DNA from: Bryobacterales bacterium
GTDB taxonomy: Bacteria > Acidobacteriota > Terriglobia > Bryobacterales > Bryobacteraceae
Assembly: GCA_003164035.1 (NCBI GenBank)
Contig: PLRS01000090.1
Coordinates: forward strand, 18,229-82,228
Direction: 5' to 3'
Length of the DNA stretch: 64,000 bases
In this document: in pieces, positions 36,506 to 49,177 of the stretch
How positions within the stretch are numbered: the first letter of the stretch is position 1
How the letters are laid out: every line of letters starts with the position of its first letter
Program-made: the position numbers and the translations under genes
Notes under the pieces: generated by a model
What the model was told of the DNA's origin: nothing
The model's database searches: none
The model's input: the letters and a program-made list of their open reading frames with translations, nothing else

Positions 36506-39500
36506 TCAATGGAAATTGTGCGCTTCGGCCGCCGCCCCGGCGCCCAAGGCCGCTACCCGTCCCACTTTGATCGAAATCGCGCCGTCCTGGTTTTGCAGAA
36601 TGCCGTCGAGAAGCAGGAAGCGCTCCCCGAGCACGGTGAGCTTATAGCGGTCGAAAACCGCCGGTTCGAGGATGGCGTTGGCGATTCCGGTTTCGTCTTC
36701 CAGGCTGAGAAAGACGAAGCCCTTGGCGGTGCCGGGCCGCTGGCGCACGATGATGGCGCCGGCCACGCGCACCACCCGGCCGTTGGGAATTTGCGCCAGG
36801 TCGGCGGCGCGGGCAACCCCGATTTGGTCCATGGCGGCGCGGCGGTGCGCCATGGGATGGCGGCCGATATTTACCCCAGTGCCGCGGTAATCGGCCCACA
36901 ATCGCTCCTCCGTGCTCATGGCGGCGAGCGGCGATGGCGCGCATTCTTCCAGTTGCTCCAGCAAGGGGCCAACCGGCAGCACGGCCCGCTGGGTCTGCCA
37001 GAGAGCATCGCGGCGATGCTCGCGGCCGAGCGAGTTGAGCGCGCCGATTTCCGCCAGCCGGTTGATTTCGTCCCTGCGCAACTCGCGAACCCGCAAGGCC
37101 AGGTCGTCGACGCTCGAAAACGGGCGCTCTCGCAGAATGGCGCGGGCCGATTCCTCGCGCAGTCCGCGCGCGTAGCGCAAGCCCAGCCGCAGGGTATGGC
37201 GGTCCACCGCGTTGCAATCCCAGTCCGAAGCCGACACGTCCACCGGCAGCACCCGCAGGCCGTGGCGCTGCGCGTCCTTGATCAGAATGGCCGGCGAGTA
37301 GAACCCCATGGGCTGGTTGTTGAGCAGGGCGCAGGTGAAGGCGGCCAGATGGTGGCATTTCAGATAGGCGCTGGCATAAGCCAGCAGGGCGAAGCTGGCG
37401 GCGTGCGATTCGGGAAAGCCGTAGAGCGCAAACGCGGTGATGGAGCGTACGATGGCTTCCTGCGTATCGCCTGTAATTCCCTGGCGATTCATCCCTTCGC
37501 GCAGCTTGATTTCGATCTCGCCCATGCGCTTTTCCGAGCGTTTGAACCCCATGGCGCGGCGCAATTCCTCTGCCTGGCCGCCGGTAAAACCGGCCGCGAT
37601 CATCGCCATCCGCAGCAATTGCTCCTGAAATAGCGGCACGCCCAGGGTGCGGCGCAGCACCGGCTCCAGCGAGGGATGGAGGCAATCCGGCGGCTCCCTT
37701 CCCTGGCGGCGATTCAAATAAGGATGCACCATTTTGCCCACAATCGGGCCGGGGCGGATGATCGCCACCTGCACCACCAGGTCGTAAAAGCAGAGGGGTT
37801 TCATGCGCGGCAGCGAGGACATCTGGGCCCGGCTTTCCACCTGAAACATGCCGATGGTATCGGCCTTCTGCAGGGCTTCGAAAACCGCCGGGTCGTCCTG
37901 CGGCAGGTGGGCCAGGTCGACCGCCTCGCCATAGATCGCCGGGATGCGCTGCAAGGTTTCTTCGATGACGGCCATCATGCCCAGGCCGAGCAGGTCGACT
38001 TTGATAATCCCCATATCGGCGCAATCTTCCTTGTCCCACTGCACGACGACGCGGCCGGGCATGGTGGCCGGCTCTAGCGGCACCACCGAATCGAGCGCAT
38101 CCTGGCAGATCACCATGCCGCCGGAATGCTGGCCGAGATGGCGCGGCAGATCCTGCGCCATTTCATACAGCTCGAAAAATTTGCGCACGCGCGGATGGGT
38201 CAGGTCGAGGCCCGCGTCGCGAAAGCGCAGTTCGGTGGTATCTTTGGGGTCCTTCCATTCCCACACGTGCGCCAGCGAGGAGAGCCGGTCAAGCGAAGTC
38301 ACATCGAACCCCAGCGCTTTGCCCACTTCGCGCGCCGCCGAGCGGCCGCGATAGGTGATGACGTTGGCCGTCATGGCGGCGCCCAATTGCCCGAAGCGCT
38401 GGTAGACGTACTGGATGGCGCGCTCGCGCTGGGCGCCGCTGGGCAGGTCGATATCGATGTCCGGCCATTCGCCGCGTTCCTCGGAAAGGAAGCGCTCGAA
38501 CAGCAGGTCCATGCCGACCGGATCGACGGCGGTGATTTCCAGAGCGTAGCAGACGGCGCTATTGGCGGCCGAGCCGCGGCCCTGTGCCAGAATACGATTT
38601 TCCCGGCAGAAGCGCACGATGTCCCACACGATCAGGAAATAGCCTTCAAGGCCGAGTTTTTCGATGAGCGCCAGTTCACGCTCGATCTGGGCGCGTGCGC
38701 GCGCATGGTACGGGCGGTAACGGCGGCGCGCGCCTTCGTCCGTCAGGCGGCGCAAGTAACTCGCCATGCTTTCGTTTTCGGGAACCGGGTAGCGCGGGAA
38801 GCGATAGCCCAGATCGTTCAAGGTGAATTCCAGGCGCGAGGATATTTCCTGTGTGTTGGCGATCGCTTCCGGAAGGTCGGCGAATAAGCGCTCCATTTCC
38901 GCCGGCGTTTTGACGTGCCGCTCGGAATTGGCTTCCAGTCTTCGGCCGGCCGTGGCTAGAGTGACTTTCTGGCGAACGCAGGTGAAGACGTCCAGCAACC
39001 GGCGGCGGTCGGGCGCGGCGTAAGCGGGGGCGTTGGTGGCCACCAGCGGCATGCCCAGGCCGCGCGCCGTTGCCGCGATGCGTTGGTTCAAAGCTTCCTG
39101 GCCGCGATGGTAGTGGCGTTCCAGCCGCGCGTAGACATTGTGCCTGCCGAAAATCTCAACCAGAAGATGGGAAGGATGGCGAGTGAGGCAGACGAGGCCG
39201 CGCGCGAACTCGGCCAGCTCTTCCGGCGTGGCTGCGCCTTCGCCTTTCGGAGCGCGCAGTTTCATGCGCGTAATGAGCCGGCAGAGGTTGCGGTAGCCTT
39301 CGCGAGTGGCCGCCAGCAGTACGTAGCAGGCGCCGTCGGTGCAGGTGATTTCCGAGCCGATGTGGGCGCGCACCCCGGCTTTTTTTGCCGCCATGTGAAA
39401 GCGCGGCGCGCCATAGACGCCGTTGCGGTCCGCCAGCCCCATTGCCGGCATGCCGTAGCTGGCGCAGGCGGCGATCAGGTCTTCCGGAAGAGAAGCACCC

Positions 39501-39544
39501 TCGAGGAAGCTGAAAGCGGAGCGGGCGTAGAGTTCGGTGTACAT
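36506..39544 (-). CDS. dnaE2: error-prone DNA polymerase III alpha-like subunit
   Basis: MYTELYARSAFSFLEGAS PHP-domain start, about 1010 aa, positioned downstream of imuA and imuB. Confidence 0.9.
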   Translation of the reverse strand: MYTELYARSAFSFLEGASLPEDLIAACASYGMPAMGLADRNGVYGAPRFHMAAKKAGVRAHIGSEITCTDGACYVLLAATREGYRNLCRLITRMKLRAPKGEGAATPEELAEFARGLVCLTRHPSHLLVEIFGRHNVYARLERHYHRGQEALNQRIAATARGLGMPLVATNAPAYAAPDRRRLLDVFTCVRQKVTLATAGRRLEANSERHVKTPAEMERLFADLPEAIANTQEISSRLEFTLNDLGYRFPRYPVPENESMASYLRRLTDEGARRRYRPYHARARAQIERELALIEKLGLEGYFLIVWDIVRFCRENRILAQGRGSAANSAVCYALEITAVDPVGMDLLFERFLSEERGEWPDIDIDLPSGAQRERAIQYVYQRFGQLGAAMTANVITYRGRSAAREVGKALGFDVTSLDRLSSLAHVWEWKDPKDTTELRFRDAGLDLTHPRVRKFFELYEMAQDLPRHLGQHSGGMVICQDALDSVVPLEPATMPGRVVVQWDKEDCADMGIIKVDLLGLGMMAVIEETLQRIPAIYGEAVDLAHLPQDDPAVFEALQKADTIGMFQVESRAQMSSLPRMKPLCFYDLVVQVAIIRPGPIVGKMVHPYLNRRQGREPPDCLHPSLEPVLRRTLGVPLFQEQLLRMAMIAAGFTGGQAEELRRAMGFKRSEKRMGEIEIKLREGMNRQGITGDTQEAIVRSITAFALYGFPESHAASFALLAYASAYLKCHHLAAFTCALLNNQPMGFYSPAILIKDAQRHGLRVLPVDVSASDWDCNAVDRHTLRLGLRYARGLREESARAILRERPFSSVDDLALRVRELRRDEINRLAEIGALNSLGREHRRDALWQTQRAVLPVGPLLEQLEECAPSPLAAMSTEERLWADYRGTGVNIGRHPMAHRRAAMDQIGVARAADLAQIPNGRVVRVAGAIIVRQRPGTAKGFVFLSLEDETGIANAILEPAVFDRYKLTVLGERFLLLDGILQNQDGAISIKVGRVAALGAGAAAEAHNFH

Positions 39545-39558
39545 GGAGCGGTCAGCAT

Positions 39559-39605
39559 TCAGCAATCAGCCGTCAGCTAGCTGAAAGCTGAGCGCTGATT
39601 GCTGA
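39559..39605 (-). other. 47-nt hairpin in the 69-nt imuB-dnaE2 spacer
   Basis: TCAGCAATCAGC (39559-39570) pairs with GCTGATTGCTGA (39594-39605), with further inner AGCT-rich pairing. Confidence 0.6.
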
Positions 39606-39613
39606 TAGCTCCC

Positions 39614-40978
39614 TCAGTCATAACTCCCCTCCACGAACCAGCCGGCCGGATCGCAATAGAGCCGATAGAGGCCGCCGTCGGAAAGGGCGATGTCCCATTC
39701 GTCGCGCGACCAGGGGTCGGGAGTCCACCAATCGCCCGAGCTTCGCCAGGGGCCGGCCAGATCGACCACTTTGCCGCGGACGCCTTCGGCCGCGATCGCT
39801 CCGGGCTGGCTCCGCACCAGCGTCACGCGCGCGGCGCGGGCGGGGCGGAAGCGGCGCAGAACCAGTGTGGGACTGCCAACCGCGGGGTTCGCCACCCAAG
39901 CGCGGCCCCATCCGCTGCGGTTGGAAAAGGCGTCCGGCCGATGGGTATCGAGCACTTGCGGCGTGCCCACGTTTTGGTCGCCAACGATGGCCCGCACCCG
40001 CGCCAGGGTGATTTCAAATTTTACCGGCTCCGGCGCGGCCGGCAGGAACAGCCCGCTCTGCGCGGCCTGCGGCTTTGCCGGGTGCAGTCCGAGCCACACC
40101 GAGACCACCGGCGCGGCCGGAGGATGAGCCGCCAGGTCGAGCTGCCAAAGCTTCAGGAACGCTTTGGTATCGAGCGACGGCACGGGCAGACGCAAAACGC
40201 GCTCGTGGATGGCGCCGGGTTCCAACTTCAACCGCAGGCGCAATTCGTCGGTCGCCAGCGCGCGCGTGGCCAAACGCGTGGCCAACCCATTGAGCAGCCG
40301 CGCCAGCAGGAACGCCAGCGGCTCCAGCAGATCCACCGCGTACTCCGGTTCGAACTCTTCTTCGAAGCGTTCCGGATCGGCGATGGGGTTGAGCTTGCGA
40401 TCGGCTTCGCCGCGCGCCAGTTCGCGCAGGCGGAGGCCCTCCGGCCCCAGGCGCTCGGCGATGCCCAGCGGCGGCAGCGCGGCCAGATCCTGAAAACGGC
40501 GGATGCCCCAGCGGTCGAGCGTCTGGGCCAGTTCGGGGGAAGGCGCCAGTTGCGCCAGCGGCAGCGGCCCCAGAAACTTAGCCTCGTCGCCATAGGGAAC
40601 GATGCTGAGTCCCGCGAAACCGCGCGCGGCGCAGATGGCGGCATCGGGGTTGGAAGCCAGCGCCAGGTGGAGCAAATTGTGGGGCGGACCCCCTGGTCCG
40701 CGCGGGTCCCCCTGGACCCGCTCTTTTGCCGAACAATCCAGAGCTTGCCACTCCCGACAAGCCGGCCAGGGGGCCGGCCGCGGACCAGGGGGTCCGCCCC
40801 ACAGACGTTCCCCGGCGCGCCGCAAAATGGCGGCGGCGATCTCCTGCGGCAGGCCGAAGAGGCGATCGAGGCCGGAAATATCGAATGTCACCGTGTCGGC
40901 CGCGGTCAGCTCCACGATGGGCGAAAATTCGGCCGCCAGCGCCTTCAGATTACCCGGGCCGTGAAGACAGGCGAACAT
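39614..40978 (-). CDS. imuB: ImuB (Y-family polymerase-like) carrying an in-frame repeat insertion
   Basis: MFACLHGPG...FSPIVE...FDISGLDRLFG N-terminus. The ATG at 40978 overlaps the imuA end. Confidence 0.8.
   Translation of the reverse strand: MFACLHGPGNLKALAAEFSPIVELTAADTVTFDISGLDRLFGLPQEIAAAILRRAGERLWGGPPGPRPAPWPACREWQALDCSAKERVQGDPRGPGGPPHNLLHLALASNPDAAICAARGFAGLSIVPYGDEAKFLGPLPLAQLAPSPELAQTLDRWGIRRFQDLAALPPLGIAERLGPEGLRLRELARGEADRKLNPIADPERFEEEFEPEYAVDLLEPLAFLLARLLNGLATRLATRALATDELRLRLKLEPGAIHERVLRLPVPSLDTKAFLKLWQLDLAAHPPAAPVVSVWLGLHPAKPQAAQSGLFLPAAPEPVKFEITLARVRAIVGDQNVGTPQVLDTHRPDAFSNRSGWGRAWVANPAVGSPTLVLRRFRPARAARVTLVRSQPGAIAAEGVRGKVVDLAGPWRSSGDWWTPDPWSRDEWDIALSDGGLYRLYCDPAGWFVEGSYD
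40677..40803. mobile_element. Family C palindromic element inside imuB (25-nt perfect terminal inverted repeats TGTGGGGCGGACCCCCTGGTCCGCG)
   Basis: Read directly. In the imuB frame it translates as ...RLWGGPPGPRPAPWPACREWQALDCSAKERVQGDPRGPGGPPHN... Confidence 0.8.
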
Positions 40979-41613
40979 AGTTTGCTCCGTGAAGTGGAAG
41001 CGCGCACGCGCACGCCGCGCAACAGGCGGCCGGGCGGCGAGCCCGACCATGCCGTCCGCTCGCGCGCGCACTCCAGTTGCAGCGTGGCGCAGGGTTTGGC
41101 GTTCGATTGCCGTGAGATGGCGACCAGCACGGTGGGGGTGTGCTCCACCGCGCGGCGCAGGCGAAACCAGGAAGTCAGCGAGATGCGGCGGGCGCTGGCC
41201 GCGGCGGTATCGCCCAGATCGAGCGCCACCACGCCGAAACCGCCGCTCTGAATCAACAGATCTGCCGCCCGCAGCGCGTGCTCGGCGTTGTGGCCGCAGC
41301 GCACCCAGAGCAGCCGCGCCAGGCAAACTCCGGCGCTTTCAGCCGAGGCGGGATCGAAGGCGTCTTCCGCGTCCACCAGGGCGCAGAATTCCTGCCGCGC
41401 CGTGGCCTGAGCCAGAATTGCGGTCATTAAAGTAGCCCGGCCGGACGAGCCGGCGCCGAAAATTTCGGTCAGACAACCGCGCGGCAATCCCCCGGAATCG
41501 GCATCGATTTCGGCAATCCCGAAGGGCACGGTTTCCGGAGCCGGCCGGCATCGCCAATCCAGTTGGCCGCCAAGTACAGATGCGAATTGGGGTAGGAGAG
41601 CAACCGCTGACAT
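40945..41613 (-). CDS. imuA: ImuA (RecA/SulA-like cell-division-inhibitor-type protein)
   Basis: GGLPRGCLTEIFGAGSSGRATL P-loop-like segment, 222 aa, first gene of the imuA-imuB-dnaE2 array. Confidence 0.75.
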   Translation of the reverse strand: MSAVALLPQFASVLGGQLDWRCRPAPETVPFGIAEIDADSGGLPRGCLTEIFGAGSSGRATLMTAILAQATARQEFCALVDAEDAFDPASAESAGVCLARLLWVRCGHNAEHALRAADLLIQSGGFGVVALDLGDTAAASARRISLTSWFRLRRAVEHTPTVLVAISRQSNAKPCATLQLECARERTAWSGSPPGRLLRGVRVRASTSRSKLCSPVFTARVI

Positions 41614-41628
41614 TCGCTTTTTATTCGC

Positions 41629-41647
41629 CTGTACTCTATTTTTACAG
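41629..41647. promoter_or_regulatory. candidate operator palindrome CTGTA-N9-TACAG upstream of imuA
   Basis: It lies 16-34 nt upstream of the imuA ATG. It resembles the CTGT..ACAG SOS-box style, but the spacing differs from E. coli. Confidence 0.25.
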
Positions 41648-41711
41648 CGCGGGTGGGGCGAATGTCAAGGGAGATTGCGCGCGACGCCGTCAGGCCTTTC
41701 CGTGTCTGACC

Positions 41712-41726
41712 CGGAACCAGGTTCCG
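41712..41726. promoter_or_regulatory. candidate operator palindrome CGGAACC-A-GGTTCCG upstream of imuA
   Basis: 15-nt palindrome with GAAC/GTTC half-sites about 100 nt upstream of imuA. Confidence 0.2.
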
Positions 41727-41903
41727 TCCTGCACATTCGCGGCTACACTTCCCGAGGCCACCCACCCAAGAATAAGTTTCTCTATGTCCTTGGCGCCGAT
41801 ACTACTGCTCGAAGCAGGAGACGCGCTCGCTGCCAGATGGCTTCTAGACAAAGTGTTGCGCTAGCGGCGTCCTATAAGTTTATAGTGGACCTTGGTAAAC
41901 CCC

Positions 41904-42764
41904 TTACCTATTTACCAGCTTGACCAGGTTCCGGCCGCAAATGATGCTGGCCTGGTGTTTATCGCCGCCGGGGCCGGGCCAGTGAGTTTCCAGGCTGATC
42001 CAGCCGCGGTAGCCGTCGCGCTCCAGCGCCGCGATTTGGCCGGGCCAATCCACGCTGCCTTTGCCCAGTTCCAGCCATTCGGCTTTGTGATCGTGGACGC
42101 GGCAATCCTTGGCGTGAACGTGGACAATGCGTCCGGCCGGAATTTTCGCGTAGCCTTCGGGGAAGGGGTTCTCTCCCGACACCAGGGCATTGGCGGGATC
42201 CCAGACCACTTTCAAGGCGGGATGGTCCAACGCCGCCAGCACGCGCGCGGTCTCTTCGCCGGTCGCGATATTGCAGGCGTGCTCGTTTTCAATGCCGATG
42301 GTCACGCCCTGGGCCGCCGCCTGTTCCGCCAGCCCGCCCAACGCGTCCACAATCCGCGAGAAGCATTCGGCGGGACGCACTGTGCGCCAGTAAGTGAAGA
42401 CCCGGATGATGCGGGCTCCGGCGATGGCGGCAATTTCGAACGTGCGGGCCGCCAGGCGCGGCTGGTCGGCGAAAGTGTGGCGCGCGGCGAAGACGTCCTG
42501 CTGGAAACGGGCATCCACCGCGGGCGCATCCGGCAGCACGCATTTGAGCAGCGGCGAAGCGATGGAAACCACTTCCAGACCGTAACTTCTCGCCAGGGCT
42601 ACGGCTTGATCCACTTCCTTGTCGGTGAGATCGACGATGTTCTTGCCGGATAACATGCGGAATTCCGCGCCGGCCATGCCGATGGCGGACATGGAGCGGG
42701 CGGCGCGATCGAGGTCGGGCGAAAATTCGTCGGTGATGGCGGCAATCGGAAATCGAACTGGCAT
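41904..42764 (-). CDS. sugar phosphate isomerase/epimerase (xylose isomerase-like TIM barrel)
   Basis: IAAITDEFSPDL..., IGIENEH and VHVHAKD blocks. I chose the ATG at 42764 over the long upstream-extended ORF. Confidence 0.8.
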   Translation of the reverse strand: MPVRFPIAAITDEFSPDLDRAARSMSAIGMAGAEFRMLSGKNIVDLTDKEVDQAVALARSYGLEVVSIASPLLKCVLPDAPAVDARFQQDVFAARHTFADQPRLAARTFEIAAIAGARIIRVFTYWRTVRPAECFSRIVDALGGLAEQAAAQGVTIGIENEHACNIATGEETARVLAALDHPALKVVWDPANALVSGENPFPEGYAKIPAGRIVHVHAKDCRVHDHKAEWLELGKGSVDWPGQIAALERDGYRGWISLETHWPGPGGDKHQASIICGRNLVKLVNR

Positions 42765-43506: not shown

Positions 43507-43590
43507 GGTAATACTCCTACTGGTAAGAGTAACGCCGCGGATGAGAGGGGCGCAACATCGCGGCCGAAGGCGCCGAAGGCGCTTAATGTT

Positions 43591-43648
43591 GTGGGGCGGG
43601 CAATCCTGCCTGCAGCCGCCTTTCAGGCGGCTCTTTCGACCGCCGAAG
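43591..43648. repeat. Family C repeat, partial (left end only)
   Basis: GTGGGGCGGGCAATCCTGCC... with an internal CAGCCGCCTTTCAGGCGGCT hairpin. Confidence 0.7.
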
Positions 43649-49005: not shown

Positions 49006-49109
49006 GCCCTAAGTTGTGGGGCGGGCAATTTGCCCGCGGCTCTTTCGGGGCGCGGCCGAGTCTTCCTGCCATGCGAGTGCCGGCTAAGAGCCGGCTGCCG
49101 CCAGGATTG
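49006..49109. repeat. Family C palindromic element (GTGGGGCGGGCAAT ... ATTGGCCGCCCCAC)
   Basis: Terminal inverted repeats with one mismatch, read directly. Confidence 0.8.
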
Positions 49110-49177
49110 GCCGCCCCACAATTTGTGCCCAATGCCGCCGGGACGAAGAGTGCCGCCTGAGGTATCATGTCACCTAT

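Follow-up and report, generated by a model that had tools for sequence, protein, structure and literature searches.

The window, by which we mean the whole 64,000-nucleotide stretch of DNA that was analysed, carries an imuA-imuB-dnaE2 cassette, and a palindromic repeat lies in frame within its imuB gene. The genes of the cassette are as follows.

36506 to 39565, minus strand: dnaE2 (1019 aa), intact, which follows imuB
39614 to 40978, minus strand: imuB coding sequence from the list of open reading frames, 454 aa with the insert, Y-family-polymerase-like
40945 to 41613, minus strand: imuA (RecA-like, 222 aa), which overlaps the start of imuB by 34 nt

The assignment of ImuB as a protein with a Y-family polymerase fold, encoded between imuA and dnaE2, is based on gene order, on the domains of DnaE2, on the RecA-like ImuA and on a Foldseek search, in which the ImuB model matched the Y-family polymerases MsDpo4, Dbh and DinB with E values down to 1.6e-13. 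A Pfam search of ImuB found no domain, and NCBIfam gave weak Pol IV matches only. In the NCBIfam alignment, residues 14-54 and 123 onward of ImuB correspond to residues ∼92-132 and 160 onward of Pol IV, with ∼40 extra ImuB residues between the two aligned blocks. ImuB orthologues (58 sequences) have MFAC(L)HG at the start. Upstream of imuA we noted two further features: a palindrome, CTGTA-N9-TACAG, just upstream of the imuA start (window 41629-41647), which is a possible operator of the cassette, and a segment of ∼190 nt (window ∼41715-41905) that is present in the source genome (G000), is missing at the orthologous locus of the congener G001 and has no REP-like features that we could see.

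The repeat within imuB is a palindrome, and its parts are listed here.

40678 to 40803, minus strand: type-1 element, very probably a REPIN, 126 nt or 42 codons, inside imuB and starting in codon 59; encodes LWGGPPGPRPAPWPACREWQALDCSAKERVQGDPRGPGGPPHN
40678 to 40702, plus strand: left terminal inverted repeat, consisting of the head TGTGGGGC and the REP hairpin GCGGACC-CCCT-GGTCCGC (40684-40701)
40702 to 40721, plus strand: second REP hairpin, GCGGGTCC-CCCT-GGACCCGC, followed by TCTTTTG; terminator-like only on the strand antisense to imuB
40761 to 40779, plus strand: third hairpin, GCCGGCC-AGGGG-GCCGGC(C), an imperfect mirror partner of 40702-40721 that has compensatory variants in the family alignment
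40779 to 40803, minus strand: right terminal inverted repeat, identical to the left repeat on the opposite strand

The window contains exactly two copies of the 25-mer TGTGGGGCGGACCCCCTGGTCCGCG, at 40678-40702 (plus strand) and at 40779-40803 (minus strand), when no occurrence is expected by chance, and a search of the window that allowed up to three mismatches found no copies beyond these two arms. The perfect 25-nt terminal inverted repeats reported in an earlier note on this DNA are thus as described, while the length of the element is 126 nt rather than the ∼127 nt given there. The arms, perfect over 25 nt, can be followed out to 38 nt with 89% complementarity and enclose a 50-nt spacer; each arm is composed of a GTGGGGC head and two small hairpins, such that the element has four small hairpins in all. 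There is no stop codon in any of the six frames of the element, and the imuB frame passes through it to give the 454-residue open reading frame, as the earlier note had stated. The region is predicted to fold very stably, both as sense RNA (-109.5 kcal/mol, z = -8.6) and as DNA (-56.1 kcal/mol, z = -8.4). A terminator scan found none on the imuB sense strand; its sole match, the hairpin at 40702-40721 with its TCTTTTG tail, is antisense. Two other identities for the segment were set aside. The only Rfam match, to a plant miRNA precursor, was below threshold and reflects the long hairpin, so that we do not consider it meaningful; an intein or a programmed-bypass segment does not fit a protein with no Pfam domain and a 42-residue segment that lacks an internal stop and is a genomic repeat.

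The source genome is a Bryobacteraceae metagenome-assembled draft from peat soil (8.0 Mb, 62.8% G+C, 169 contigs), in which we found 45 loci of the type-1 family, 22 of them full length. We defined the family with blastn and iterated nhmmer because counts of the head GTGGGGCGG are not enriched genome-wide. The family alignment contains compensatory stem variants, for instance GGACCCCCTGGTCC versus GGACGCCCTCGTCC; the heads read GGT(G/A)GGGCGG, with GTGG in most copies and GTAG in several, and a conserved AAATG/CATTT lies just outside them. Based on a codon-score survey, nearly all type-1 copies are found between genes, at gene ends or just upstream of genes. The family is present in all five congeners, with 14-34 or more copies each, and in G005, G026 and G028, and it was absent from the 22 other relatives searched.

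Within the window, nhmmer found no other type-1 members. The three sites that the earlier note had placed in the same family, near 43591, 49006 and 51807, share only the ∼10-nt head GTGGGGCGG with the imuB element, and that assignment does not hold. Instead, window 49014-49122 is a full element and 43590-43640 a single arm of a fourth family (GTGGGGCGGGCAAT...) that has at least 50 loci in the genome, while 51807 is a 19-nt mini-palindrome only. A simple head search found no flanked RAYT for the GTGGGGCGGGCAAT... family.

A candidate enzyme for the type-1 family is encoded elsewhere in the genome. Among 12 matches to PF01797 (Y1_Tnp), the gene at C166:14651-15316 scores 31.9 bits (cut-off 23 bits), has visible NHVHLL and ESYDH motifs, and has as its best NCBIfam match NF047646, ‘REP-associated tyrosine transposase’, with an E value of 4.5e-20 and 72 bits against a cut-off of 80 bits. 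This gene is bracketed by inverted type-1 arms, GTGGGGCGGACCTCCTGGTCTGC-GGCCGACC... on one side and ...GGCCGCAGACCAGGAGGTCCGCCCCAC on the other, in the layout GTGGGGCGGACCTCCTGGTCTGC... [Y1_Tnp ORF] ...GCAGACCAGGAGGTCCGCCCCAC; therefore, the transposase gene occupies the place of the spacer of the 126-nt element. We infer from this flanking arrangement that the C166 RAYT acts on type-1 arms, and the imuB element was probably copied by this RAYT-type HUH/Y1 transposase (C166:14.65-15.32 kb). Two other RAYT-like genes are accompanied by arms that differ from type-1 but have the same GTGG(A/G)GCGG head: a type-2 arm, GTGGAGCGGGCAC..., lies within 700 nt of the gene at C13:4828-5692 and was seen on one side only, and arms GTGGAGCGGACTC... 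lie on both sides of the gene at C81:∼41000-41700. With several RAYT-like genes that have their own REP arms, the genome holds multiple REPIN-RAYT systems.

Based on its arms, its family and the RAYT-flanking evidence, the imuB element corresponds both to a REPIN (Bertels & Rainey 2011, who described REPIN-RAYT systems; PMC3116915) and to a dimer of the GTAG-tagged REPs described by Di Nocera et al. 2013 (PMC3733652). We consider it very probable that the element is a REPIN, in which REP hairpins, placed behind a GT(G/A)GGGCGG head, form two inverted pairs; this is a joint judgement, which covers the REPIN identity together with copying by a RAYT, the history of the site and the tolerated in-frame insertion in imuB. 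Like the known systems, the elements described here are inverted REP doublets with a spacer and a GT(A/G)G head, exist in tens of mostly extragenic copies and in several families per genome, lack target-site duplications and persist vertically within the genus. Moreover, three of the families adjoin a Y1 transposase gene, two on both sides and one on one side. They differ from the known systems in their Acidobacteriota host, in having two hairpins per arm, in a head that is mostly GTGG rather than GTAG, and in the gene involved, imuB, one codon position of which has been used by two families, in two orientations, in five species.

Classical MITEs (Correia/NEMIS, ERIC, Nezha) are similarly short and non-autonomous, with terminal inverted repeats, and are sometimes intragenic with in-frame fusions. 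They originate from DDE insertion sequences, and their insertion duplicates the target site. We found no target-site duplication at imuB, where the sense-strand flanks GAACGTC and ATTTGCT contain no direct repeat, or at the two other intragenic sites (in ybeY and in an ASPIC/TPR gene, described below), and the putative partner enzyme is an HUH/Y1 transposase. Thus, of the description ‘MITE/REP-like’ in the earlier note, we retain the REP part, with a candidate cognate RAYT, and reject a classical DDE-derived MITE.

To place the insert in the protein family, we examined 58 aligned ImuB sequences from Bryobacterales, with the site bounded by ...RRAxE and (L/I)ALA(S/A)NPDAA. In 53 of the 58, the site holds only 2-6 residues, with nearly all of these sequences having five or six (as in TRVKAN), and a longer insert occurs only in the five species of the source genus. 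The earlier note had named such an alignment beforehand as the test of a native origin; the 53 orthologues without the segment exclude a native segment, and they bear out its description of a mobile palindromic repeat in frame between two conserved N-terminal blocks of ImuB. Judged from this alignment, the insert is a derived state and is not native. The five species carry different inserts.

G000 (source genome): 126-nt type-1 element
G001: type-1 element in the same orientation as in G000, with an 18-nt internal deletion
G002: 81-nt type-2 palindrome, CGTGGAGCGGGCACTCGTGCCTGCCA...TGGCAGGCACGAGTGCCCGCTCCAC
G003: type-2 element, 93 nt
G004: left type-2 end GTGGAGCGG, 15 nt, type-1 in the opposite orientation, 88 nt unique

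Two short sequences that flank the type-1 element in the window match the ends of the type-2 inserts.

40667 to 40673, plus strand: GTGGAGC (GCTCCAC in the imuB sense), which aligns with the right end of the 81/93-nt element of G002/G003, the putative kept terminus of an older type-2 REPIN
40805 to 40807, minus strand: CGT on the sense strand, which matches the left edge of the type-2 insert (GAA CGT GGAGCGG...) in G002 and G004

Indeed, both G000 and G001 keep the outer type-2 ends, CGT on the 5′ side and GCTCCAC on the 3′ side. The reading frame is open in all five insert-bearing imuB genes, and later indels within the inserts are all multiples of 3. The simplest history would have three steps, in an order that rests on the 3- and 7-nt remnants and on distances from imuB only, which place G004 outside the other four species and separate those four from one another by almost equal amounts. 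First, in the genus ancestor, a type-2 REPIN would have entered imuB at the codons that specify a turn, located between a helix of the palm domain and the strand that follows it; second, type-1 would have taken over most of the type-2 interior in the G000/G001 lineage; third, G004 would represent either a separate type-1 event in the opposite orientation or an in-situ inversion. A single simple insertion does not account for this locus, in which the type-2 ends CGT...GCTCCAC of the probable first occupant still flank the element. In G004, the 88-nt segment that follows type-1 (L023; G004:C17:25144-25231) is non-palindromic and is read in frame, and we found no other copy of it in the five genomes.

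Outside the insert, pairwise dN/dS of imuB among the five insert-bearing species is 0.15-0.22 at dS 0.20-0.47; comparisons that involve two insert-free orthologues (each congener versus them, and both versus each other) give 0.16-0.23. In an AlphaFold2 model of ImuB based on 44 sequences (mean pLDDT 74), residues 63-98 have pLDDT <50 and no secondary structure, while the helix at 44-60 and the strand at 104-108 that flank the insert are both confident, with pLDDT 82-94 on either side. Mapping the insertion on a predicted structure, one of the checks proposed in the earlier note, thereby places it in a disordered segment, and the 42 insert residues are predicted to form a disordered surface loop in the turn between two palm-domain elements. 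Because dN/dS matches that of insert-free lineages and the insert is located in a disordered loop, the insertion is best read as tolerated rather than inactivating, and the gene appears functional; of the two outcomes that the earlier note had offered, this is the one we favour.

The frame would survive because the element is 126 nt long and free of stop codons in every frame, so that ribosomes would read through it and add 42 Pro/Gly/Arg-rich residues to ImuB. Selection would act as a filter, such that only in-frame copies located in loops survive and the insert is a tolerated ‘decoration’. The word ‘tolerated’ may nonetheless cover a quantitative cost or an effect on regulation, given that the mRNA hairpin predicted from the sequence, which is very stable (-109.5 kcal/mol), could lower expression of imuB and dnaE2.

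The inserts themselves change slowly. Inserts in G000 (window 40678-40803) and at L024 and L022 change 3-5 times slower than the 4-fold degenerate sites of imuB: the type-1 insert differs between G000 and G001 at 5 of 113 nt when 14.4 differences are expected from 4-fold sites (P = 0.003), and the type-2 insert differs between G002 and G003 at 2 of 81 nt when 9.9 are expected (P = 0.002). Such slow change is not predicted for a purely neutral passenger. Other copies could have supplied sequence by gene conversion, repair could have used the hairpin as a template, or selection could act on the hairpin or on recognition by the RAYT.

Alternatively, the hairpin or the encoded loop may have gained a function and be kept by selection, which we regard as unlikely. 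It might serve as an internal RNA structure by which translation or processing is adjusted between imuA and imuB-dnaE2, as a binding site for RAYT or another protein, or as a new surface loop of ImuB. The slow evolution of the inserts, the presence of an intact palindrome at the site in all five species despite turnover and the very stable RNA fold are all in keeping with such a function, and Di Nocera et al. (PMC3733652) speculated that it is not by chance that REPs occur in repair genes. However, the two families at the site have unrelated stems and occur in both orientations, and the peptides that they encode are wholly different (WGGPPGPR... versus GAGTRACHVPTH...). In-frame internal indels of 18 and 12 nt have been tolerated, the segment is predicted to be disordered, and the sense strand has no terminator-like site, while the slow change could be explained by gene conversion with other copies or by hairpin-templated repair.

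A related idea, which we likewise regard as unlikely, is that the imuB loop was not hit by chance and is a long-lived landing site for REPINs, where RAYT-type elements would be attracted by head-like motifs (GTGAAGGCC, GTGGAAGCGG) or by REPs already resident in coding DNA and where the hairpin would be actively maintained, for example as a structure, in RNA or in DNA, that governs the output of imuA-imuB-dnaE2. If this were true, a REPIN-RAYT system would be linked to the control of induced mutagenesis.

Inactivation of ImuB with preservation of the frame, in which function has been lost and only the length and G+C of the element happen to keep the frame open, is very unlikely. Since all six frames of the element lack stops and its length is divisible by 3, the open frame alone proves little, and the insert does lie within a Y-family palm-like region, both of which are compatible with a loss of function. 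Nevertheless, five species keep a full-length imuB with dN/dS (0.15-0.22) indistinguishable from that of insert-free lineages, the lengths of later indels in the inserts are all divisible by 3, the neighbouring imuA and dnaE2 genes are intact, and the structure that flanks the insert is confidently predicted; neither dN/dS nor structure supports this alternative from the earlier note. Finally, although the genome is a metagenome-assembled draft of 169 contigs, it is extremely improbable that the segment is native to ImuB or an assembly artefact: 53 orthologues lack it, its sequence family is repeated ∼45 times, mostly between genes, and an artefact is unlikely because four other, separately assembled congener MAGs, with names that point to at least three projects, have an insert at the same codon as the source genome.

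We return, then, to a REPIN that is tolerated in frame within imuB. In-frame intragenic palindromic repeats are already established in other bacteria; what is new here is the host phylum, the gene (imuB) and the serial occupation of one site. Di Nocera et al. reported REPs inside genes, with dnaE2 and other replication and repair genes accounting for many of them, and argued that intragenic REPs sit in flexible loops (PMC3733652). The Rickettsia RPEs (Ogata et al. 2000; reviewed in PMC10969869) are palindromic repeats of ∼100-150 nt that lie in frame in conserved genes, and the segment that they add to the host protein has been judged compatible with the fold of that protein and with its function. 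We liken the imuB element to RPEs by behaviour only, as in-frame and tolerated, and expect no sequence relation. The two differ in that RPE-1 has no known dedicated transposase, whereas a candidate cognate RAYT is present for the family of the imuB element, and in that intragenic copies are rare here (3 of ∼45 loci).

With this case, Acidobacteriota gain a well-documented instance in which a conserved repair gene tolerates a REPIN. The five-species series, with two-family turnover at one codon, frame-preserving decay and unchanged purifying selection, is missing from earlier surveys. It also singles out the turn of ImuB that joins helix 44-60 to strand 104-108 as one that accepts insertions of 27-79 residues, a property of use in tagging the protein. 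Leads that can be tested, on how RAYTs choose targets and why REPINs persist, come from the slow evolution of the inserts and from the likeness of the targets to the REP head.

Besides imuB, two genes of the source genome contain type-1 sequence in frame.

C74:202285-202368 (G000): ybeY (PF02130, E = 1e-26), with 28 element-derived residues between DVLSFP and LGDI
C135:40146-40197 (G000): gene for an FG-GAP/ASPIC-UnbV/TPR protein of 1174 aa, with one REPIN arm, VGRTPRSAADPLVGLSS, in frame

At the ybeY site, G002 has a full REPIN, G000 and G001 have a copy trimmed in frame, and G003, G004 and other genera have no element. At the ASPIC/TPR site, only G000 has the insertion; 21 native nt have been swapped there for 60 nt, and the G001 and G003 orthologues lack the arm. 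Presence in some relatives and absence from others at these two sites indicates, at the level of sequence, that the REPINs are mobile. Twelve type-1 copies that lie in long open frames of the congeners were checked by codon score, and all were extragenic or upstream of genes, with none intragenic.

We also noted a likeness to the REP head in the native sequence at each of the three intragenic insertions (GTGAAGGCC, AAGAAGGCGGCG, GTGGAAGCGGCC), on the basis of these three sites only; the 21 native nt displaced in the ASPIC/TPR gene likewise resemble the REP head. Three further REPIN copies in G000 (C77:74060-74159, C125:116238-116361 and C130:63512-63634) lie immediately upstream of the coding starts of lipoprotein or signal-peptide genes and are open in the same frame as these genes, and they may be 5′ leaders or even suppliers of start codons.
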